Shown: in pieces, positions 1 to 10,458 of the stretch | Layout: every line of letters begins with the position of its first letter | Position numbering within the stretch: position 1 is the first letter of the stretch | Virus record (IMG/VR): IMGVR_UViG_2585427789_000026 | Source: a virus | Lineage: Duplodnaviria > Heunggongvirae > Uroviricota > Caudoviricetes | Direction: 5' to 3' (one strand) | Length of the DNA stretch: 10,458 nt | The notes under the pieces: generated by a model | Told to the model about the DNA's origin: nothing | Databases searched by the model: none | The model's input: the letters and a program-made list of their open reading frames with translations, nothing else | Translations under genes and position numbers: made by a program

Positions 1-1167
1 TCAGGCCTTATGGTGGAAATAATCACTCAGGCGAGAAAACATGCTGCCTTCCCCGACAGATTCCAGGGTAACCAGCGGCCAGTGCGCCACCTGTTTATCA
101 CGGTCGTAAAGTTCAATTTCCCCTACCCGCTGATGGGCGCTAATTGGCGCGGTGAGCTCTTTACCATTAAGGGTATATTTGGCTTTGATATGTGGAATTT
201 CGGCTTTCGGTAGCACCATCCAGAACTCTTGTTCCGTTCCCAGGGCGATATTTTCTTTATCACCATACCAGATGCGTTCCGTACCGACCTTTTTCCTACG
301 GTGCAAAATTTGCACCGTAGTAAAGTTTTGTTGCCCCCAACGCAGTAATTTTTTTGCCTCTTCCTCACGACCTTTTGCGCTGTCAGCACCCATTACCACT
401 GCAATGAGGCGACGCTGCCCGTCTACAGCCGAAGCAATAAGATTAAACCCGGCACCAGAAGTATGGCCCGTTTTCAGGCCGTCAACATTCATGGTCTTAT
501 CCCACAATAACCCGTTACGGTTTTGCTGGGTGATACCGTTCCAGGTGAGGCTTTTCTCACTGTACATATGATAAAACTCGGGCTCGCCGTGGATGATAGC
601 GCGAGAAAGCACGGCTAAATCATAAGCCGAGCTATGCTGGCCAGGTGCATCCAGACCATGCACTGTTTCAAAATGCGTATCCTTGAGATGCAGCTTCTCG
701 GCATAGTTGTTCATCATTTCAACAAACTGCCGTTGCCCACCGGCAATATAGTCAGCCAGAGCAACACACGCGTCATTTCCGGAATCCACAATTAAACCTC
801 GGCTTAAATCACGTACCGATACGCGATCGCCCTCTTTCAAAAACATCAGTGAAGAACCGACAAACACCGGATTATCTTTCGCCCACGCATCACGCCCCAC
901 GGTGACAATATCGTCTGGCGTAATGCGATGACTATCGATAGCGCGATCCACGACATAGCCCGTCATCAGCTTTGTCAGGCTGGCGGGATTGCGCTGTTGA
1001 TGCTCATTACCCGCGGTGAGAATCTGACCGGTGGTGTAATCCATCAATACCCAGGACCCGGCATGAATCTCTGGAGGCTGAGGTGAAAAAGGAATGTTTT
1101 CCGCCGCAAAACCAGACGATAAATTAAAAACGAACAAAGAAGCAGCAATAATAAGACGGCGTTTCAA
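1..1167 (-). CDS. dacD: D-alanyl-D-alanine carboxypeptidase DacD (penicillin-binding protein 6b)
   Basis: Complement ORF with stop at 1-3; translation carries the serine-PBP motifs SLTK (SxxK), SGN and KTG and matches E. coli DacD as recalled. The ORF track extends to a TTG at 1171-1173; the recalled 388-aa protein (MKRRLIIAAS...) starts at the TTG at 1165-1167. Confidence 0.92.
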   Translation of the reverse strand: MKRRLIIAASLFVFNLSSGFAAENIPFSPQPPEIHAGSWVLMDYTTGQILTAGNEHQQRNPASLTKLMTGYVVDRAIDSHRITPDDIVTVGRDAWAKDNPVFVGSSLMFLKEGDRVSVRDLSRGLIVDSGNDACVALADYIAGGQRQFVEMMNNYAEKLHLKDTHFETVHGLDAPGQHSSAYDLAVLSRAIIHGEPEFYHMYSEKSLTWNGITQQNRNGLLWDKTMNVDGLKTGHTSGAGFNLIASAVDGQRRLIAVVMGADSAKGREEEAKKLLRWGQQNFTTVQILHRRKKVGTERIWYGDKENIALGTEQEFWMVLPKAEIPHIKAKYTLNGKELTAPISAHQRVGEIELYDRDKQVAHWPLVTLESVGEGSMFSRLSDYFHHKA

Positions 1168-1375
1168 CAGCAAACCCTCAGGTGTTTCAAATAGCTGTTC
1201 TTTTTACGGAAATACTTATGAACTGGCTGGAATAAAGTGCAAGAAAATGTGACTACTACCTCATTTTTATCTGACATGATCTGTTGCCACTCGCTGCCAA
1301 ATTGTCGCGCTAAAGCTGATTAGCACGGTGATATTTGATACTCTGGCAGACAGCAGAAATAACGGATTTAACCTA

Positions 1376-1438
1376 ATGATGAATGACGGTAAGCAACAAT
1401 CTACCTTTTTGTTTCACGATTACGCGCAACACCCCTGA
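1376..1438 (+). pseudogene. sbcB: Exonuclease I (sbcB) 5' remnant: first 16 codons, then divergent sequence and stop
   Basis: ATGATGAATGACGGTAAGCAACAATCTACCTTTTTGTTTCACGATTAC encodes MMNDGKQQSTFLFHDY, the recalled N-terminus of E. coli ExoI, at the expected distance and divergent orientation from dacD. After about nt 1424 the frame reads AQHP-stop instead of ETFGTHPALD. Confidence 0.6.
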
Positions 1439-1478
1439 GAACCGCCATGAACAAGGGTTTCATGATTTGTGATTTTAG

Positions 1479-1502
1479 TTTGGTACGCAATTTGGTACAC
1501 AA
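1479..1502. repeat. Tandem 12-bp direct repeat TTTGGTAC(G/A)CAA x2 in non-coding junction region
   Basis: Seen directly: tttggtacgcaa (1479-1490) followed immediately by tttggtacacaa (1491-1502), 11 of 12 identical. No credible ORF on either strand across 1439-1907. Confidence 0.5.
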
Positions 1503-1907
1503 CACAATTTTCACTTCAGCGGGTAGTCATCAAACTCACCATAACGAGCATCGTTGATGATGTATGTGATCACCACAAATATCACATCTGGACTAGTTCC
1601 GTCTTCATGCGCAGGTATCTGTTCACGCCTCCCTTTCTGCAAATCCTAAAGATGAGATTTTGGGGTTTTGGGATATCTTTTTATCCTCAGTTCTCTATCC
1701 ATTCTACAAAGCAGTAATGAACCATCACCGTGTGATAGTGAGGCATCCGCTACGTTAAGCGCAGAGAAATGATGCAGTGGTGGTCGGACTGGATTGATGA
1801 AAAGGTGTAGCAACCAACATTGCTATATCTCAGATAGCACAAAGCCTTGCAATCCAGTGCAAAGCTTTGTGTGTCTCAGTTTTGTCTCATAGGTAACTCT
1901 GTGTTAA

Positions 1908-2195
1908 CTACGATGCAAGAATCCATACCAATAAGCATCCGATAATTGGGAAAGAAAAATCCATCAGGCTTGCCACATCCCATGCACGCGGATCAAAACC
2001 GCCCCACCACGGCATGTTAATCCGCTTGCCATGCCCGAACATTTCAATCCAGCGATATTCTGCCTGGGTGTGTTCACGAGCAATGAAGAACGTACAACCG
2101 GCTATCGCACCGTAAGCCCAGTTTCCGGTAAAAAGACCAACCAGTACCTGTGCGACCACAGCGCAAAGTGCGTGATGAATTGGGGTTTTATCCAT
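1908..2195 (-). CDS. Hypothetical small membrane protein (95 aa, two hydrophobic segments), joined stop-to-start to tailspike
   Basis: ORF with ATG at 2193-2195 directly abutting the tailspike TAG stop (2196-2198), giving TAGATG on the coding strand. Two hydrophobic stretches (ALCAVVAQVLVGLFTGNWAYGAIAGCTFFIA and LMDFSFPIIGCLLVWILAS). No family recognised. Confidence 0.55.
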   Translation of the reverse strand: MDKTPIHHALCAVVAQVLVGLFTGNWAYGAIAGCTFFIAREHTQAEYRWIEMFGHGKRINMPWWGGFDPRAWDVASLMDFSFPIIGCLLVWILAS

Positions 2196-4781
2196 CTACT
2201 CTATCTCTTTTGCTTTTTTAATTATCAATTCAAGCTCTGTTAAACGAGACTCAATGCGTTCACACCTTCTTCGCTGGAATGCAGCCTCCAACCACAAACA
2301 TTCATCTGGACGCAATCCCCAACGCTCACCAGCATGTACAACCAGTTCCGTGTCACCAGTATCGTATTCTTCAAAGTATTCGTGAACGATGTCTTCTCCT
2401 TCAGGGGATTTAGCTATAAATGACACCTTGCGCTGTGCCATTACAGGTTGGTACTCATCATCCCATTTATCATGACATAGCAAGCCAAATCTTGTTCCAT
2501 CTATCCCCTTTGCAAGAAACGCATCTCTTACCTGCTGTGCAATTGCTCCGAAATGCCAACGAGCAGTATCCGAACCTTTAGCCTTAATATCGGACAACCA
2601 CTGGTAAACGATAATATTTACGTCACCCCATGCGTCAAGAATTGCATCCTGATCCACCTCCATGATTTCTGAAAGTTGCTCTACTGTCAGTGGCTTTGTT
2701 TTCAATGTCTGGTCTGAAGTATTTATTGCCCCATTAGTTGCATATACTTGCGTCCACCGTTTAGATGATGTCCCACATGATGACGTATTATCTTTATTAG
2801 CACTTATATAGCCATTAACCTCCGCTGACTGACCGATATACGAATATGAAGATGTTGATAAGGGAGATTTAAATATCCATTGAGCATTGGTAAAGTCATA
2901 AATACCGGTATCACCTTTTTCACTAACATGAAAAGTTACATTCCGTAACGTATTCTTTGCATCATAACGGGCGGCTTGTGTTGTTGCCCTCGAAACAGTG
3001 AATCCTTTGTCATCAAGGTTTGCCTGCTCTATGACTTCACCACCAGGCATAATTTTACCAAGGCTTAACAAACCAGAGTTAGTGACAATATCATGGGTTG
3101 AATCAATGATAATACCAGGCTGATTTCTTGATGTTGTTTTTACATGCATTACCTGTTGTGGCATTAATGTGTAAAATGTAGTTTCTCGCCCACTATCACC
3201 ATCTGGTATGCCATTTGTATTCCCCATTACAAGGTCATACCCACCTGCAATCATACGGAAAAACATTGCTTCTGGTTCATATGTAAGATTGCTAACATCT
3301 GGCGTTCCGGTATCATTTGGATCTGCTATTTCATAGGCTCTTCCTGCACCTGCCTGTATTTGCTGCACCCCAAGATAAACACCATCAAGTGTGTACTGAT
3401 GCAAATATTTTCTGGTTGAAGAATATGCAGATCCAGCCTGACAAAAATAAATAGCAGTACCGTCACACGCAACTGTTTGCATATCCCTCACAAAATCGGC
3501 AATTTCAAATTCAAAAGTTGCTTCATTACGATAATCGTAATTGTACGCCTGCGGGTTAATAAATTTGCTGGTATCAAATACTTTTACATAATAGCGAATT
3601 TGATCTGGTGTTGATGGGCTCTCACCAGGGCCAACATAACGTTTTGCTGTAGTAATCAGCCATCGACTCATAGGGTCGGTGCATAAAACATTTACCTGAT
3701 TCTCGTAACCATCTTCCCATATGAGAAAAAACTCTGGTTCAATTTCACCACCATCAGTAGGGGTGAATCTGGTGATATACTTTGCGCGATCCTCTCCTTT
3801 AGCTGTGCCAGCTAACCCCCATATCTGTAACTGGCCTCTTGTGTTACGAAAACCAACGCGCCCTATGGTTAAACCAAGACATTGATGTCCTAATTCTCTA
3901 CTACCTTTAGTCTCCCAAAGAGGAGTTAACTCTTCATTCCCAAACCAATTATAAGCAACAACTTTATTAACTTCGTCACCAGAACTAACGCTGCCACTCA
4001 CATTTACCAAGCAATAAAGAACACTGTCATAATAATCAAGAACAGCACCCTGTATGACAGTATTTTTAATTGTTGCCAGTCGCAACCCTGACTTAACATG
4101 ATTAGGAGTAGAAGGTCTGAAACCTGTATACATCCCCTTTTTTATAGTTTGTATTCTTTTTTCAGTAAAATCAGCATCTGGCAGTAATCGATTCTCTGTG
4201 CGAAAATAGCCATTTATATACTTATTTCCATCAAAAACTTGATCTGTTATATATGTATTACCCCTTAGATCAACAATCCTTCCTGTGATTTGTTTTTCTA
4301 ACTCTTGAAAAGATAATGTGTCATCGGTGATGCCATCACCTTTTGCTCCCCATCCGCGAGGGTCAGCGTCATCACGCCACCGAGACATCTGCAATTCATG
4401 ATATTTTTTAGCACCTTCCGGGTCTTCTAATTGTTGTCTTAATTGGTCAGGATCGTACTTAAGCACATTCGGAAAATAGAACTGCTGCGTACCATATGCA
4501 TCGTAAACAGCCATAGAATGGCCTTGCACGGTAACGAATTTGGAAATCTGTCCGTTGTATACCGGGTATCCAGCAGCATTGATAACGATTGGCTGTGGCA
4601 CCTGAACATAAGTACCATCTTCTCGTTCCAGATATACTGGAATCTGGTTTTCTGGATTTACCGGATCTGTGTCAATCTTACCGATATAAATTTTTCCATT
4701 TGCTACGGTTTTAAAAGAGCTAGCCATTGTGAAGAGTTGCGATGGCATCCCAATTACAACATTTGGGGTTATATCAGGCAT
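2196..4781 (-). CDS. Phage tailspike: P22-type N-terminal head-binding domain, pectate-lyase-like beta-helix central domain, C-terminal intramolecular chaperone (peptidase S74-like) domain
   Basis: N-terminus [17 protein letters not shown]...[27 protein letters not shown]...[15 protein letters not shown]...NVLKYDPDQ aligns closely with the P22 gp9 / HK620 head-binding domain as recalled. Central [12 protein letters not shown] motif is typical of pectate-lyase-superfamily depolymerases. C-terminal ~173 aa begins SDQTLK (Ser codon 2715-2717), fitting the S-x4-K self-cleavage signature of tail-fibre chaperone domains. Start chosen at ATG 4779-4781 (AGGA 8 nt upstream); the ORF-track start at 4874 has no ribosome-binding site. 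Confidence 0.85.
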
Positions 4782-5197
4782 ATTAGTCATCCTGTTTGAA
4801 GATTTAGATATTGAAGAAAACGGAATGACTGCAGACAAAGATGCAATTGTTTTGAAAAATAACCTTCTATTCATTTAAAAACCATGCAACATGAACAAAA
4901 CGATTATTTTACAATACTCAAGAATCTTGATCAACAGGCATATTATTTATGCGCTTAATGCGTCACTTACAAAAATAAAAACAAGTAATACCTTTATTCC
5001 TATCGTCCATGATTTTTATTTTCAAACATTATTAAATAACAATTCCTATTTATAATATCTGTCATTTAATTTGCTCCAGATACAAGGAATCGCCGCAGCA
5101 TGGCTACGGTGAGCATTTGTTACATACCGAAACGGTACGATTGTTGATTTGTACAGTAGGTTTTACGATGCCATTCCACCCATTTGGTGAGGCATTG

Positions 5198-5455
5198 ATG
5201 ATGTACAGCAAATACGATGAGGCGCAGTTCCACTTGAGGCTTACGCACGAGTTGCACGCTAAGATTAAGCAGCGTGCAAAAATGAATAACAGGTCTATCA
5301 ATTCCGAAATTGTGGCTACGATGGAAGAATCACTCTCCAAACCATCACCTGTAAGCGGGTATCGTGATGAAGAAGAGAGGCTGGACTCATTAATCTCGGA
5401 ACGAGTAAAAGAAGTTGCGGCTGATATCCTTAGAAAAGAAAAAACCCGCGATTAA
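5198..5455 (+). CDS. mnt: Mnt-like ribbon-helix-helix repressor
   Basis: Translation MMYSKYDEAQFHLRLTHELHAKIKQRAKMNNRSINSEIVATMEESLSKPSPVSGYRDEEERL... aligns along its length with P22 Mnt as recalled (…FNFRMP…GRSMNSE…SKPSPVTGYRNDAERL…). GGTGAGG lies 5 nt upstream of the ATG at 5198; a second ATG follows at 5201. Confidence 0.8.
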   Translation: MMYSKYDEAQFHLRLTHELHAKIKQRAKMNNRSINSEIVATMEESLSKPSPVSGYRDEEERLDSLISERVKEVAADILRKEKTRD

Positions 5456-5463
5456 GCGGGTTT
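5442..5463. terminator. Bidirectional intrinsic terminator between convergent mnt and the antirepressor operon
   Basis: Perfect 8-bp stem aaacccgc / gcgggttt with 6-nt loop gattaa, flanked by an A-run upstream (a U-tract for the minus-strand transcript) and ttt on the plus strand. It overlaps the mnt stop codon and lies 7 bp from the stop of the 73-aa ORF. Confidence 0.55.
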
Positions 5464-5469
5464 AGTTGG

Positions 5470-5691
5470 TTAGTTATCAAAAAGTCCGTACGTTTCTTCT
5501 TCTTCAGGTGTAAGGGGAAGAATCTCTACTCTATCTATAGATACCTTTTCAATGTACCCATGAGGCCTACTTAAAATTAAAGCTCTCTCATGCCACAGAA
5601 CTCCAAGAATGTGATACCTTCCAGCATCGCCTTTTACCCTGGCTCTTCCTTTGATTCTTGGCGGCATAATGCCATATTTTTTCTTTGCCAT
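5470..5691 (-). CDS. Hypothetical 73-aa protein (basic N-terminus, acidic C-terminus), translationally coupled to the upstream antirepressor
   Basis: Its ATG (5689-5691) overlaps the TAA stop of the upstream gene (5691-5693) as TAATG; it ends just before the bidirectional terminator. No family recognised. Confidence 0.5.
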   Translation of the reverse strand: MAKKKYGIMPPRIKGRARVKGDAGRYHILGVLWHERALILSRPHGYIEKVSIDRVEILPLTPEEEETYGLFDN

Positions 5692-6416
5692 TATGCAACA
5701 TTACTCCCATGAATAAGGTGTTGTAGTGCTTTAACACCTTCCTCATTGTAGCGGAACGCTTCCACCTGTTTGCTGGAATGCGCAGATTTATCCAGGAAGA
5801 ACTTCCCGTACTGCTCAGTTTTGAGGTTGTTTGCGTTAGCAATGCGACCAATCTTGTTGGCCGTTACTCCAAGCTGCTCTGCAACCTCCCCTGCTGAGTA
5901 GTAATGCTCTTCTATTGCCGGAAGAGGTATTGCATTAAAACCAACGAGCGGGTTGATTATACTTGCTGCCGCTGTCTGCTTTGCCTCCGGCGCAAGATTT
6001 GGCATCAGATCGAACAGATTGGTAACAGCTTCAACCGTCATTTTCAATGTTCGCGCTTGACGATACTCAACAAGTCCACTCGCTGATTTACCGCTTTTAA
6101 TGTGCGCTTCCTGCATACTTTCAAGTTTGTCTACAAGTGTTCGGCGAACTGCTTTAGATTCGCGAGCAGCAACACGAAGCGCCTGCTTGATAGTCATGGA
6201 GATAACATCAATGTCAGCCCCGTTTTTCCGACCTACACTTTTTGTGTAGGTCTCGCCTTCCAATTCATCCTCAATTTTCTCGATGAATTTGTTGTTACGT
6301 ACTGATGGCTCTCCACATAACTTGCGAGCTTCATTAACCATCATCAGAAGACTTTGGCTGTCAATGGTTTTATCCGTGACAACGGATCCGATGTTTGCTA
6401 CATTCTTAAAAGTCAT
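5691..6416 (-). CDS. Phage antirepressor / regulatory protein, Rha-like N-terminus with KilA-C (ANT) C-terminal domain
   Basis: C-terminal YYSAGEVAEQLGVTANKIGRIANANNLKTEQYGKFF...FRYNEEGVKAL fits the KilA-C antirepressor domain pattern; N-terminal ...DSQSLLMMVNEARKL...VRNNKFIEKIE resembles Rha/ORF6N. Start chosen at ATG 6414-6416 (MTFKN..., AAGGA about 7 nt upstream) rather than the ORF-track TTG at 6503. Confidence 0.65.
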   Translation of the reverse strand: MTFKNVANIGSVVTDKTIDSQSLLMMVNEARKLCGEPSVRNNKFIEKIEDELEGETYTKSVGRKNGADIDVISMTIKQALRVAARESKAVRRTLVDKLESMQEAHIKSGKSASGLVEYRQARTLKMTVEAVTNLFDLMPNLAPEAKQTAAASIINPLVGFNAIPLPAIEEHYYSAGEVAEQLGVTANKIGRIANANNLKTEQYGKFFLDKSAHSSKQVEAFRYNEEGVKALQHLIHGSNVA

Positions 6417-6485
6417 TAGGCATTCCTTATGTGGTAGTAAGGGTGTGACATAGGCCGCCAGCAGCACACTGGCGGTTTTCTTTTG
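6411..6485 (+). ncRNA. Putative sar-like antisense RNA covering the start codon and ribosome-binding site of the Rha/KilA-C antirepressor
   Basis: Candidate promoter GTGACA (6376-6381), 17-bp spacer, TACATT (6399-6404) would start transcription near 6411 and end at the terminator above, about 70 nt. The geometry mirrors the P22 sar antisense RNA in the arc-ant region. Confidence 0.35.
6454..6485 (+). terminator. Plus-strand intrinsic terminator in the intercistronic region between the two antirepressor genes
   Basis: Stem ccgccag (6455-6461) / ctggcgg (6469-6475), 7-nt loop, followed on the plus strand by ttttcttttg (6476-6485). The minus-strand side has no U-tract. Confidence 0.55.
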
Positions 6486-6503
6486 CGCAGTCCGGCGCAC
6501 CAA

Positions 6504-7142
6504 TCAATGAATCCATTCCTCGCCGCGAAGTTTTGCCAGCATTGGCTGAGCGTTCTTTACGACAAAATTGTTGGTATCAAGATTCTTCATTTCACGAAGA
6601 AGTGATTTCTTGGTTTCTTCTGACATGTAGCGAGTCTCATATGCAATATCGTAAATCCTTCCTGAAAGCTCAGAACCAATTTGCTTCATTCCTGGGTAGA
6701 TGTGTTTGCACATTTGTTGACTCTTCTCCATCCACAATTGTAAGTAGCAGAGATTAACCAGCTCTTCGTCAGTGAACTGTTTTGCAATCGGTGAGCATTC
6801 TGCCTGCCGATCCAAAATATCCAGCACCCAGCGGCGGAACTCTTTGGCCTTGGGCGTAGAAGCAAACATCGCCACCAAGTGAGCGCCTCGGAGTGAGTAA
6901 ACTCTGACCGATTTGTTACGTAAGCTATTGTTTATTCCGTTGACCTTCATATTGAGGGTCAATGACATTGAGTCGGAAAATTCGTCAGCATTACGGGCAT
7001 AAATTTGGCTGATGGCATCAGTTTTTTTATAGCCGAGAGCCTTAGCTAGTTCGGTGGAGGTAAACCAGATAGACCCGCCCTCTGTTACAGGGTTAAAAGT
7101 GAATCCTTGGAAGTTATAATCTGATTTTGCTACAATATTCAT
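6504..7142 (-). CDS. Phage antirepressor with Bro-N / AntA-type N-terminal domain
   Basis: N-terminal ...FQGFTFNPVTEGGSIWFTSTELAKALGY...VYSLRGAHLVAMFASTPKAKEFRRWVLDILD matches the Bro-N / antirepressor N-domain pattern. Start chosen at ATG 7140-7142 (MNIVAKSDYNFQ, AAGGAAA 6 nt upstream), downstream of the arc stop; the ORF-track start at 7247 overlaps arc. Confidence 0.65.
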   Translation of the reverse strand: MNIVAKSDYNFQGFTFNPVTEGGSIWFTSTELAKALGYKKTDAISQIYARNADEFSDSMSLTLNMKVNGINNSLRNKSVRVYSLRGAHLVAMFASTPKAKEFRRWVLDILDRQAECSPIAKQFTDEELVNLCYLQLWMEKSQQMCKHIYPGMKQIGSELSGRIYDIAYETRYMSEETKKSLLREMKNLDTNNFVVKNAQPMLAKLRGEEWIH

Positions 7143-7220
7143 GTTAGTTTCCTTGAGTACGGTTACTGACATAGAGGCCCGGTTTGTGTTCGCGCACTGC
7201 CGGGCTTCACTATTTTTATT
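7143..7220 (+). ncRNA. Putative second sar-like antisense RNA covering the ribosome-binding site of the Bro-N antirepressor
   Basis: Candidate promoter TTGGAA (7107-7112), 18-bp spacer, TACAAT (7131-7136) would start transcription at about 7143, beside the Bro-N start codon, and run about 70 nt to the hairpin and T-tract at 7174-7220. Same geometry as the 6411-6485 unit. Confidence 0.3.
7174..7220 (+). terminator. Plus-strand terminator-like hairpin with T-rich tail at the arc 3' end, upstream of the Bro-N gene
   Basis: GC stem gcccgg (7177-7182) / ccgggc (7200-7205) with extension, followed on the plus strand by ttcactatttttatt. The minus-strand side has no U-tract. Confidence 0.4.
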
Positions 7221-7389
7221 GGATGACAACATCGCCCTTTGCCTCAAGTTTCATTAATAACTCCATTCGATAAGCTATCTCTGCCTGAATTGACCTATGG
7301 CATCTTTTTGCTGATTCGCGGATATGTGAATCAACCTTTTCTGTAAAACGAACCTGACGCGGCTTGATGGAAGATATCTTTTCAGTCAT
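7216..7389 (-). CDS. arc: Arc-like ribbon-helix-helix repressor (57 aa; not in the supplied ORF track)
   Basis: Hand translation of the complement strand: MTEKISSIKPRQVRFTEKVDSHIRESAKRCHRSIQAEIAYRMELLMKLEAKGDVVIQ-stop. It aligns with P22 Arc as recalled (…PQFNLRWPREVLDLVRKVAEENGRSVNSEIYQRVMESF…). AGGAG lies 6 nt upstream of the ATG at 7387-7389. Confidence 0.7.
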   Translation of the reverse strand: MTEKISSIKPRQVRFTEKVDSHIRESAKRCHRSIQAEIAYRMELLMKLEAKGDVVIQ

Positions 7390-7435
7390 TATGCACTCCT
7401 GTTTTTGAAAAACTCATAATCTCACTTTTTGTAGT

Positions 7436-7467
7436 TTGATTATTCACTCACACTCAGTATGAGTCAA
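7436..7467. promoter_or_regulatory. Overlapping divergent promoters with candidate operator (palindrome ACTCA-gta-TGAGT plus ACTCA repeats) between arc and the CI-like gene
   Basis: Minus strand: TTGACT (complement of 7462-7467), 17 bp, AATAAT (complement of 7439-7444), reading into arc. Plus strand: TTGATT (7436-7441), about 16 bp, TATGAG, a weaker promoter reading into the CI-like gene. The 13-bp palindrome at 7452-7464 overlaps both; further ACTCA half-sites at 7412 and 7445. Confidence 0.4.
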
Positions 7468-7488
7468 TGAATTTTTTATGGTGAACTA

Positions 7489-8130
7489 ATGAATTTTGAC
7501 GATCAATTCCCATCAAGAGTATCTCTGGCAAGACAGTCCAGGGGTATGACGCAGGCGCAGTTGTCAAAATTAGCTGGTGTTGTTCAACGTCAAATAGCTG
7601 CATACGAGGGTGGTGAGGCTAAACCACGGCTTCGGGTATTGCAGGCATTAGCCAACGCATTAGGTACTACGGCTGAGTGGTTAGCTCTAGGTGAAGGTCA
7701 GGGTCCGGGAACAAAAAACGTCATGCCTGACGTTCTGGTAAAGCAAATACCAATTCTCAAACTAGATGAAGTTATGCATTACCTAAACACAGGTGAACAT
7801 TCATCGTCTAGATTTCATCCTGCAATATACAATGTTGGTGACTCTGCATTTGCATTGACTATTGAAGGTGAAGCTATGACTACAAGTTCAGGTATTAGCT
7901 TTCCCAGAGGATCGGTTGTCACGTTCAGCCCTCTAGTAAAAGCTAAAAGCAAAGATTATGTAATAGCATCATTGGATAAAGAGCAAATATTGAGCTTCAA
8001 ACAGGTTTACATTGGTGAAATAGAGACAAACCTAGTATCCCTAAACCCAATGTATCCTAATATTCTTGTTAGAAATGAAGATGTTAGTATTTTGGCAACC
8101 GCAGTTTACCTTGAAATCCCGTTGCTTTGA
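7489..8130 (+). CDS. CI-like repressor (XRE-type HTH plus LexA/S24-like C-terminal domain) with catalytic Ser and cleavage site replaced
   Basis: N-terminal HTH (…GMTQAQLSKLAGVVQRQIAAYEGG…); C-terminal GDSAFALTIEGEAM…SFPRG…LSFKQV…LNPMYP aligns with lambda CI GDSAFWLEVEGNSM…SFPDG…FTFKKL…LNPQYP. The G-x-S-M nucleophile position reads Ala (GCT 7873-7875) and the Ala-Gly scissile position reads Asp-Glu. Confidence 0.8.
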   Translation: MNFDDQFPSRVSLARQSRGMTQAQLSKLAGVVQRQIAAYEGGEAKPRLRVLQALANALGTTAEWLALGEGQGPGTKNVMPDVLVKQIPILKLDEVMHYLNTGEHSSSRFHPAIYNVGDSAFALTIEGEAMTTSSGISFPRGSVVTFSPLVKAKSKDYVIASLDKEQILSFKQVYIGEIETNLVSLNPMYPNILVRNEDVSILATAVYLEIPLL

Positions 8131-8190
8131 TATCCTTTAGGAGGCGACACATTATCATCTGGTATCCTGCTCAAAACTAAGGAGGTTGGT

Positions 8191-8379
8191 GTGAAGAAAA
8201 AATTTGTAAACGTTGCAAAGTGCGCAATTTTTATATTTTTTATGACCTTTTACGGATTTAGTGCCGGAGAAGGTTTCGATCGTGATGCCAATGCATTCAG
8301 TTTCTTTTGTCTGTCTATAGTGGTCATAATTGTATGGGTGGAATTAAAGCAAACATTGTTTCATGTGCTAAGGAAATAA
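8191..8379 (+). CDS. Hypothetical small membrane protein (62 aa) downstream of the CI-like repressor
   Basis: GTG start 5 nt after a strong TAAGGAGG (8178-8185). Lys-rich N-terminus followed by two hydrophobic segments. Same strand as the CI-like gene, 60 bp downstream. Confidence 0.5.
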   Translation: MKKKFVNVAKCAIFIFFMTFYGFSAGEGFDRDANAFSFFCLSIVVIIVWVELKQTLFHVLRK

Positions 8380-8396
8380 CCATCCATGGCATTTAG

Positions 8397-8931
8397 TCAC
8401 TGCTGTGTTGCCTCAGTGGCAAGCAGCGGTCTGATGGCATTTGCAGCGTTACTTAATGCTCTTTCATAGGCTGGCGTTCCTGCTTTGGTGTTTGCCAGAC
8501 GTAAGAGCGCATTCCTGGCCATAGGGCTTTCATAAACCCTCGACATAAGGCCAATCCCTGTTTCCCCAGCCAATAGCGCGCCTCCGGTTTTTAGGTTACC
8601 AATAACCCTTACCAAAGGCGCGAGTGTCATGCCAGTCTTCGTCACAACATTAGCCTCAGATGCTCTTTTGGTAGCATCGAGAATAGATAACATCCCCTCT
8701 ATCTCTTTTCCGTTCTTCCCACCAAATACAGTTTTAAACACCTGACCATTTGCTTGTTTTTGCAGCTTGCCAAGCTCGGTCATCATTTTCTGAGGGCTGT
8801 CACCTACCTTGTCAGCTATTTTGCTGATATATGCCGCCCTTAGCATGTCTTTACCTTTTTGATCGAGTTTCCCGTACAATCGAGCTATATCTGACCCATA
8901 TTGTCCATACACAATGGTATTTACAGCCTCG
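8397..8931 (-). pseudogene. 3' fragment of a phage late gene (putative DNA-ejection / internal virion protein, gp16-like by position), truncated by IS66 insertion
   Basis: The reading frame stays open upstream of the listed GTG (8912) straight into the IS66 end, with no convincing ribosome-binding site. The protein is low-complexity and Ala/Gly/Lys-rich. The gp16 assignment rests only on position relative to P22 gene order. Confidence 0.4.
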
Positions 8932-10458
8932 GTAAGCGGCTCGCCAGAACCGTATTGATATTTACTGAGAGGTCAGATCAACTTTCCAGGGCAACAGATC
9001 GCGTACCCGGTTTGCCGGCCAATCCTGGATATGCTCAATGACGTAACGCAGCCATTTTTCTGGTTCCACATTGTTCAGACGGCATGTGCCGATCAGCGAG
9101 TACAACACCGCCGCATGTTCGCCACCGCTGTCGGAACCCGCGAACAGCCAGTTTTTCCGGCCTACGGCCACTCCCCGTAAGGCGTTCTCTGCGATGTTGT
9201 TGTCGATTTCCACCCAGCCATTACTGCAGTACACGTTCAGGCCATCCCACTGTTTCAGCAGGTATGCGAACGCTTTTGCCGTATCCGAGTGACGCGACAG
9301 TGTTTTCATCTGAGTCTGTATCCAGTCATACAGTGACTGCATCAGTGGCGCGGCTCTGGCTTTTCTTGCCGCCAGACGCTGTTCTGCTGAACATCCCCGG
9401 ACTTCTGCCTCGATGGCATACAGTTCACCGATACGCTGCAGGGCTTCCGTGGTGATGTCGGTGGGCACTCTTGCATGCACATCGTGGATTTTTCTCCGGG
9501 CATGAGCCATACACGCGGCTTCCGTTATTCTGCCGGATTCGTATAACACCCGGTAACCACCGTAAGCATCGGCCTGAAGCACACCGCTGTAACCGGCCAG
9601 ATGATTTTGTGGATGGATACCTTTCCGGTCCGGTGAGTACGCGAACCAGACCGCCGGGGGCATTTCCGAACCGGCGTTACGGTCATCACGGACGTAGACC
9701 CACAGCCGGGCGGTCCGGGTTTTACCGCTGCCCGGCTCCTGGACCGGGACGGGGATATCATCAGCATGGACTTTACCGGGCATCAGCACATACTGGCGCA
9801 GGACGTCATACAGCGGCTCCAGCAGTTCAGCAACGGCACCTGTCCAGCGCCCCAGCGTGGCGCGGCTCAGCTCCACGCCCTGGCGACGGTATATTTCTGA
9901 CTGGCGGTATAACGGCAGATGGTCTGCATATTTCCCGGTAACAACATGGGCCAGAAGCCCCGCTCCGGCATAACTGCGTGCAATGGGTTTTGAAGGTACT
10001 GTTGCCTGCACGATATGGTCGCACCGACAACAGGCCAGTTTCGGACGTTGTGTTTCGATAACCTTAAAGGCGCTGCTGATAAGCTCCAGTTGCTCTGACA
10101 CATCACACCCCAGAGGACTGAGGTCACCACCACAGGCCGGGCAGCATTCCTCTTCCGGCCGGATGACCCGGGTTTCACGGGGAAGTGAGGCCGGTAACGG
10201 TTTACGGGCTGAAGACTGGCGCAGGGCGGATGGCAGTACCGGGTCATATTGCTCACCCAGCGTTTCCGCCATTTCTTCCTGAAGTGCGCTGATTCGCTCC
10301 TGTGCTTCCTGTATCTGCCGTTCGGTTTTAGCGCGAAGTTTTTCTGAGCTTTTACCGAACTGCATGCGCTGCAGTTTCGCAACCAGCGCCTTCAGCCGGT
10401 TGATTTCGGAAGCATAAGCCGCCACCCGCTGTGAGAGCAGGCGGTTGTATTTCGCCAT
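8932..10458 (-). mobile_element. IS66-family insertion sequence, right end, continuing beyond the window
   Basis: GC-rich block beginning GTAAGCGGC at 8932, consistent with the GTAA terminus typical of IS66-family inverted repeats as recalled, 30 bp from the transposase stop. Sharp composition change from the AT-rich phage sequence. Confidence 0.75.
8962..10458 (-). CDS. tnpC: IS66-family transposase (TnpC/orf3), N-terminally truncated by the window edge
   Basis: 498-aa ORF ending ...[11 protein letters not shown], with leucine-zipper-like N-region, CxxC...CxC zinc motif (CPACGG...CCRCDH) and a conserved catalytic core. The M at 10458 corresponds to an internal position in full-length IS66 TnpC as recalled, so the true start lies outside the window. 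Confidence 0.9.

Follow-up and report, generated by a model that had tools for sequence, protein, structure and literature searches.

A variant immunity-I region with two antirepressor-class genes in a P22-like prophage of Escherichia coli

Antirepressors decide whether prophages stay silent and can couple the induction of unrelated prophages within one cell. In P22-like phages, the slot between the DNA-transfer genes and the tailspike gene holds the ‘ant moron’, or immunity-I (immI) region, which is highly variable (PMC2629481). An Ant protein of phage PhiB24 that carries the P22 C-terminal domain accelerates derepression (PMC3064807), and the antirepressors of the Gifsy and Fels prophages, which are controlled by LexA and encoded outside the immunity region, are able to act on the repressors of co-resident prophages (PMC3121763). 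For phage P1, the sequence record describes how the ant products antagonize C1 repression through an Ant1/Ant2/C1 complex. Here we analyze an immI locus in a stretch of viral DNA of 10,458 nucleotides (IMG/VR record IMGVR_UViG_2585427789_000026), referred to below as the window and numbered from its first letter. The locus is a variant form of the immI region of a P22-like (Lederbergvirus) E. coli prophage. It contains two antirepressor-class genes in tandem, one encoding a protein with a Bro-N domain (antirepressor 1) and the other a 241-residue protein (p241).

The system itself is already known from the immI logic of P22, and the locus is already annotated in a phage genome sequence. Positions 4900-8400 of the window are 100% identical to Escherichia phage JEP4 (Lederbergvirus), where the corresponding genes sit between the DNA-transfer genes and the tailspike gene in the order DNA-transfer gene, repressor, small ribbon-helix-helix gene, two genes labelled ‘Rha/KilA’, mnt and tailspike. 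Read along the minus strand, the direction of the late operon, the window contains in turn the C-terminal part of the DNA-transfer gene, a 62-codon open reading frame (ORF) and a CI-like repressor gene (both on the plus strand), a 57-codon ORF (arc57), the gene for antirepressor 1, p241, orf73, a terminator, an mnt homologue (plus strand) and the tailspike gene. Three features set the locus apart from the immI of P22: another antirepressor-class gene, which is hardly ever found apart from ant; an additional, predicted sar-like unit; and, in place of Mnt, a CI-like repressor expected to be non-cleavable. We lean towards reading the locus as a variant P22-like immI in which a single operon, transcribed from a Pant-type promoter, encodes two antirepressor-class effectors, each gated by its own antisense RNA. 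The gain over the known system is refinement rather than surprise.

Domain content and conservation of the gene pair

Antirepressor 1 combines two recognized domains. Pfam places Bro-N at residues 19-109 (E 1.3e-10; 42.2 bits against a gathering cut-off of 25.6), in agreement with an earlier note on this DNA, and P22_AR_C, which that note had missed, at residues 121-188 (E 2e-13; 50.7 bits against a cut-off of 22.4). Pfam gives no P22_AR_N match for this protein; the Ant of phage epsilon34 reaches 153.6 bits in the same library. The full protein matches PHROG 245, ‘anti-repressor Ant’ (E 4e-50), and its C-domain shares 29% identity with the P22-type Ant of epsilon34 over residues 177-274 of the latter (E 1e-10). 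As the C-domain is P22_AR_C, antirepressor 1 is tied to P22 Ant.

The second protein belongs to a different family, as the earlier note had supposed: BLASTP between p241 and antirepressor 1 yields an E of 0.24, with no detectable similarity. However, the label ‘Rha/KilA-C’ given to p241 in that note has to be withdrawn. Pfam assigns no family to p241 at E<=0.01, and sub-threshold HTH_31 is the sole match at E<=10; Phage_pRha, ANT/KilAC, Bro-N, P22_AR_N and P22_AR_C are all absent up to that limit. Profile-profile comparisons of the p241 halves with hhalign, run in local mode with positive controls, gave probabilities of 0.2-1.4% against pRha, Bro-N, ANT and P22_AR_C (controls 97-98%). Specifically, p241 scored 0.2-0.3% against the pRha alignments (control 98.5%), and its C-half scored 0.2% against the ANT alignment. 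A comparison with the full N-terminal part of the upstream proteins reached 12% (E 0.0024), which is not significant. One match of 92.9%, between the N-half of p241 and the C-domain of Ant, was discarded as an artefact because the same proteins supply overlapping residues to both alignments. Sequence searches against solved structures, with either the Bro-N protein or a p241 profile, returned spurious matches only.

The kinship of p241 with antirepressors has another basis. Over its full length it matches PHROG 1726, ‘anti-repressor’ (E 2e-102), and tblastn against phage records matches its residues 14-105, at 73% identity (69/95; E 2e-43), to residues 112-206 of P1 Ant1, which constitute the N-domain of Ant2. 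A profile search of 1.84 billion representative proteins recovered 1185 relatives, many of which share one half only; viral homologues number 438. For 47 relatives with the C-half alone, the N-terminal domains were KilA-N (12), Bro-N (11), ORF6N (8), Phage_pRha (7), AntA (3) or P22_AR_N (2), and none of the 47 matched ANT; four of 17 relatives with only the N-half end in ANT/KilAC. Both halves thus recur separately in other architectures, so p241 consists of two un-named modules of the well-known network in which phage antirepressor, Bro and KilA proteins shuffle their domains.

The pair is widely conserved. We compared 80 viral loci from IMG/VR with a p241 homologue (69-100% identical). A same-strand ORF ends 66-118 nt upstream of this homologue in every one, and tblastn identifies a homologue of antirepressor 1 directly upstream in 72/80. 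In 20 representatives, Pfam describes the upstream ORF as Bro-N with P22_AR_C, P22_AR_N with P22_AR_C, Bro-N alone or ORF6N, with DUF551 as the one exception. Four exceptional loci (L041, L042, L043 and L045) represent contexts of the Stx-phage type, where an Ant-like gene lies downstream of the p241 homologue instead. Beyond the viral loci, a Bro-N gene is found directly upstream in 10/10 genomes tested from other genera (GTDB: Serratia, Citrobacter, Proteus, Erwinia, Kluyvera and others), in which p241 is 42-78% identical. The tandem arrangement of Ant and p241 is far beyond chance. Within E. coli it is infrequent at the nucleotide level: 48 of 5426 complete genomes (about 1%) have a place covering at least 80% of positions 5470-7400, which span arc57, both effector genes and orf73. 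Our literature search on tandem or second antirepressors found no study of the Ant/p241 pair.

Despite this linkage, the coupling is one-sided and the two genes are exchanged independently. Phage epsilon34 has ant without p241, and in Salmonella phage SPN3UB the same Bro-N Ant is followed by an ORF6N protein. Divergence in one gene is not mirrored in the other: behind Ant genes with another N-domain family and a C-domain only 29-31% identical, p241 is still 91-99% identical. Co-evolution of p241 with its upstream partner was accordingly rejected, given the conserved p241 beside divergent Ant C-domains. This independent exchange, together with the separate antisense units described below, favors two co-regulated but separate effectors over one complex, and it would be compatible with separate targets for the two proteins.

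Operon promoter, divergent repressor and antisense units

The operon’s first gene, arc57, encodes a probable Arc-like protein. In Pfam it stays below threshold (ParD_like at E 8e-4; Arc at 16.0 bits, where 20.4 is required), and it has no BLASTP match to epsilon34 Arc. With hhalign, its positional orthologues align with P22/epsilon34-type Arc at a probability of 93% (E 3e-7; 42 columns). BLAST links place the protein in one cluster with the Arc of epsilon34, and the gene takes the position of arc in every inspected locus. In nearly all of 17 inspected loci, a divergent repressor, usually a Mnt-type ribbon-helix-helix protein, lies upstream and an Arc-like small gene precedes the Ant-type gene. 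The earlier note’s description of two antirepressor-class genes in tandem, in one operon behind an Arc-like gene, is supported, and both of its ORFs, 6504-7142 and 5691-6416, are present on the minus strand.

Opposite the operon, the window encodes a CI-like repressor at the position that Mnt occupies in P22 (Table 1). Aligned with lambda CI chains, it has GEAM opposite GNSM, such that the catalytic Ser149 is replaced by Ala while Lys192 is kept. The C2 encoded by immC of JEP4 is a canonical cleavable repressor; against it, the CI-like protein has GEAM opposite GDSM and ILKLDEV opposite WVSAGCW, so that no Ala-Gly site is present. Lacking both, it should not be removed by RecA-stimulated self-cleavage, and our initial candidate of an SOS-cleavable repressor was dropped after the Ser-to-Ala finding. 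Distant CI-like relatives at the same position in two loci (L078 and L082) retain the Ser. Direct SOS control of the operon was likewise dropped, as Pant has no LexA box; total LexA-box matches (6 against 3.6 expected) were not above chance. Overlapping the -10 hexamer of Pant, an imperfect inverted repeat is a candidate operator.

These observations bear on the targets proposed in the earlier note, for example the local CI-like repressor and the main immunity repressor elsewhere in the prophage or in co-resident prophages. The identical pair of CI-like repressor and arc57 accompanies the cassette in only 21/80 viral loci (distant CI-like relatives occur in four more), and the inspected loci that lack it have Mnt-type repressors, which makes the CI-like repressor unlikely as a dedicated target. 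The other suggestion finds no counterpart in the closest complete genome, where the prophage is a remnant without immC.

Within the first codons of the gene for antirepressor 1 lies an antisense promoter that aligns with the annotated Psar of epsilon34 and is kept in 48 of 50 distinct loci. The downstream segment aligns with annotated epsilon34 sar and folds at -33.3 kcal/mol (z -5.6) into the matching two-hairpin shape; by eye, the second hairpin is retained with a different sequence in some loci of the cross-locus alignment. An Rfam scan of positions 4800-8500 at E<=1 returned no match, hence sar has no curated family. By sequence, the unit at 7107-7216 qualifies as a true sar homologue.

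A second unit of sar-type architecture, with only patchy sequence similarity to sar, is positioned ahead of p241 (6376-6488). Of 60 distinct loci, 57 have its promoter in the form GTGACA-17-TAnAnT with TG, and the other three were missed through offset artefacts. The distance from the end of the promoter to the start-codon complement is 9 nt, except for one locus with 8 nt. The N-terminus of p241 is variable and modelled with low confidence or as disordered, apart from an invariant V13-T14; the overlap of the promoter with their codons appears to account for this invariance. The terminator hairpin of the unit, analyzed with RNAalifold over 26 loci, comprises nine pairs, five of which show compensatory double changes, with seven core pairs never broken, and a conserved T-run follows. 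From these features we infer a second sar-like antisense RNA, whose expression is predicted.

Proposed action and alternative explanations

Pant drives four genes, for the Arc-like autoregulator, antirepressor 1, p241 and orf73, in the arrangement that we propose. In a lysogen, the divergent CI-like repressor would probably keep Pant off, and after derepression the Arc-like protein would limit expression. Translation of each effector gene would additionally be held down by its own antisense RNA, made from the promoter within its first codons. Once expressed, as might happen from a superinfecting genome, each protein would most likely bind prophage repressors on its own and inactivate them non-covalently. 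More kinds of repressor could then be neutralized than with a single effector, in the phage itself and in co-resident prophages. This account builds on the observed gene content, the domain relationships, and the conservation of both the pair and its promoter and terminator elements, while the binding activities, the targets and the pairing of repressors with operators are putative throughout. A more specific version holds that the cassette is an obligate two-effector device, each effector antisense-gated and directed at a different repressor class: the P22_AR_C protein at CI/C2-type repressors, the P1-Ant-like protein at some other class such as P1 C1-type. We regard this version as quite improbable; if it were true, a P22-like prophage reduced to a degraded remnant could still set off unrelated prophages resident in the same cell, or plasmid prophages.

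Several points weigh against our reading. The role of Ant is not fully understood even in P22 (PMC3121763). The closest complete genome lacks immC, so there the cassette would have to act in trans, on prophages other than its own. The promoters were called by consensus matching, and promoter-like sites in the region are no more numerous than in shuffled sequences. As a result, the assignment of Pant is mainly positional, and the promoter calls take their weight from cross-locus conservation only. For p241 in particular, there is no curated domain, the label ‘anti-repressor’ in PHROGs and GenBank has spread by propagated annotation, and our literature search found no experimental test of a full-length homologue. 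Its AlphaFold2 model has moderate confidence only (pLDDT 71.5; pTM 0.36), and in structure it is most similar to MerR-like winged helices that bind DNA, a result that fits a DNA-binding regulator as well as an antirepressor.

Such a regulator, or a host-directed and possibly toxic protein of the KilA/Roi/Rha class, might share the tightly controlled ant operon without being an antirepressor at all. We consider this possible, though unlikely. The annotations of p241 homologues vary between KilA, Roi and transcriptional regulator, tight antisense control would suit a toxic product equally well, and the N-domains of this shuffling network are said, following Iyer, Koonin and Aravind in 2002, to be generally regarded as DNA-binding. 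Nevertheless, p241 shares 73% identity with the N-domain of an antirepressor that was defined by experiment, it keeps a constant place directly behind ant in immI-type operons, and its regulatory unit is constructed like that of ant. The same kinship with P1 lends itself to another explanation, in which both proteins are subunits of one antirepressor heteromer, comparable to the Ant1/Ant2 complex of P1, and neither has a target of its own. Retention of the pair in nearly every examined locus would follow from this, as would the near absence of p241 without an Ant-type neighbor while Ant without p241 does occur (epsilon34, SPN3UB); p241 also shares the N-domain of P1 Ant2, which the P1 record places in the complex with Ant1 and C1. 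Nonetheless, we judge a heteromer rather improbable. Closely similar p241 proteins are paired with Ant proteins of another N-domain family and low C-domain identity, SPN3UB replaces p241 with an ORF6N protein behind the same Ant (95.5% nucleotide identity), Stx2a phages reverse the gene order with about 850 nt in between, and each gene has a separate antisense unit.

It is also conceivable that the tandem arose by accident at a mosaic joint of a prophage in decay, with a second gene that is functionless there. The prophage is indeed degraded: an IS66 element sits in the DNA-transfer gene, and the nearest complete genome is without immC, replication, lysis and head genes. However, neither ORF is disrupted, JEP4, which was deposited as a complete phage genome, has the identical region, and the pair is kept across genera down to 42% protein identity. 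This already contradicts such an explanation, which we hold to be very improbable. If the paired genes truly differ in their targets, the cassette would be a compact cross-induction device found across Enterobacterales prophages, and the relatives in Stx2a phages provide a possible link to the induction of toxin phages. The second antisense unit, in turn, is a simple and testable extension of the classic sar paradigm of P22.

Surroundings of the locus and comparison with known systems

The features of the window are collected in Table 1. An NCBIfam scan gave nothing useful for any gene.

Table 1. Features of the immI locus and flanking DNA, in window coordinates
Feature	Position	Strand	Evidence or remarks
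Antirepressor gene 1, Bro-N + P22_AR_C, 212 aa	6504-7142	-	Pfam; PHROG 245
p241, antirepressor-class gene 2, 241 aa	5691-6416	-	P1-Ant-type N-domain (~14-105), long helices, un-named C-half with MerR-like winged-helix domain
Probable Arc-like ribbon-helix-helix protein, 57 aa (arc57), first gene of the operon	7216-7389	-	Sub-threshold Pfam and hhalign
Divergent CI-like repressor, HTH_3 + Peptidase_S24 fold, at P22 Mnt position	7489-8130	+	Pfam HTH_3 E 9e-13; Peptidase_S24 E 1.3e-12
Pant-like sigma-70 promoter into arc-like gene	7439-7467	-	TTGACT-17-AATAAT; best promoter-like site of the region, 10/12 matches
Imperfect inverted repeat ATAATCTCACT / AGTTTGATTAT, candidate operator	7416-7443	.	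Repeat scan; overlaps -10 hexamer
Psar-type antisense promoter inside first codons of antirepressor gene 1	7107-7136	+	TTGGAA-18-TACAAT with TG; promoter scan
sar homologue, ~70-nt antisense RNA over ribosome-binding site of antirepressor gene 1	7144-7216	+	Two hairpins and terminator, at end of arc
Second antisense promoter (predicted) inside p241 codons 5-14	6376-6404	+	GTGACA-17-TACATT with TG; promoter scan
Putative second sar-like RNA, ~75 nt	6411-6488	+	Complementary to p241 start codon and ribosome-binding site; ends at hairpin 6452-6478, then T-run
orf73	5470-5691	-	PHROG 4977, E 5e-54, no known function; start codon overlaps p241 stop (TAATG)
Intrinsic terminator closing the operon	5442-5463	-	8-bp stem, then T-run; overlaps 3' end of convergent mnt-like gene
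Mnt homologue (Arc family), convergent with operon, adjoining tailspike gene	5201-5455	+	Pfam Arc E 9e-15; 45% identity to epsilon34 Mnt, E 3e-23
62-aa hydrophobic ORF between DNA-transfer gene and CI-like repressor	8191-8379	+	PHROG 21338, function unknown
DNA-transfer (gp16-like) gene remnant	8397-8912	-	C-terminal 171 aa only
IS66-family transposase	8962-10458	-	Cuts DNA-transfer gene

The host gene dacD marks the left end of the window, and the remainder is the right end of the P22-like prophage. Identity to related genomes ends at position 8932; the closest complete genome is identical over positions 1-8932 and carries the prophage as an element between sbcB and dacD. This element still has the DNA-transfer genes, the immI region, int and part of the early-left genes; immC and the replication, lysis and head genes are gone, and an IS3 element and large deletions are present instead of the IS66 insertion. 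In that genome the prophage is a remnant. Between dacD and the 95-codon ORF that follows the tailspike gene, positions 1511-1762 (minus strand) correspond to an S24-family peptidase pseudogene in RefSeq, with an internal stop and a missing N-terminus, in the identical region of strain E100341. The product of positions 2196-4874 (minus strand) differs from the JEP4 tailspike despite the identical adjoining immI region.

At the other margin of the locus, the 62-codon ORF lies roughly at the position of sieA in P22 and is found at 98-100% identity in only seven of the 80 viral loci. The gene orf73 has a broader distribution, occurring in 38/80 at 97-100% identity; the remaining loci lack it. The block of CI-like repressor, arc57, ant and p241 looks to have been inserted upstream of mnt as one whole. 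Next to the tailspike gene, the mnt homologue, taken with positions 4782-5200, resembles the arrangement in phages that have mnt alone in the slot.

Among described systems, the immI of P22 and epsilon34 is one of the closest. Like the locus in the window, it is placed in the late operon, with the DNA-transfer genes on one side and the tailspike gene on the other. Also shared are a maintenance repressor in divergent orientation, a first gene that is probably Arc-like in the window, homologous Psar and sar, an Ant with P22_AR_C, and a terminator before the tailspike side. In contrast, the Ant of the window has Bro-N in place of P22_AR_N as its N-domain, the divergent repressor is a CI-like HTH/S24 protein with a Ser-to-Ala replacement rather than Mnt, and a Mnt homologue is found downstream, convergent with the operon. 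The window further adds p241, orf73 and a second antisense unit after ant. Phage P1 immI, with its c4 antisense RNA, icd and ant1/ant2, has the N-domain of p241 and a control by antisense RNA, which is predicted for the window. However, the window has neither icd nor a c4-type RNA, and where P1 Ant1 ends in ANT/KilAC (residues 234-336), p241 has the unrelated and un-named C-half described above.

More than 100 Stx2a-phage records contain a full-length p241 homologue (60-63% identical) beside an Ant with P22_AR_C. In these phages, by contrast, the genes lie near int in the early-left region, their order is reversed and the N-domain of the partner is AntA; the two gene types therefore associate outside immI too. 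Three viral loci of the Stx type (L041, L042 and L045) lack the GTGACA antisense promoter motif in the cross-locus alignment. In the Stx2a phage F451 (L139, 3492-5705), the p241 homologue is followed by an antirepressor pseudogene fragment and then by an ‘Ant’ with AntA and P22_AR_C.

Salmonella phage SPN3UB (L142, 1684-3874) offers another parallel, with a Mnt-like repressor, an Arc-like gene, the Bro-N/P22_AR_C Ant and, about 80 nt after it, a second gene of the same domain-shuffling class. The ORF6N protein encoded by this gene is nevertheless unrelated to p241 (BLASTP E 1.0). Homology to the window ends at position 6454, inside the intergenic hairpin, which suggests that the hairpin is a recombination joint. 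Finally, the Gifsy and Fels antirepressors share the concept of action in trans, but they are small, come from other families and are under direct LexA control, whereas the Pant of the window has no LexA box.

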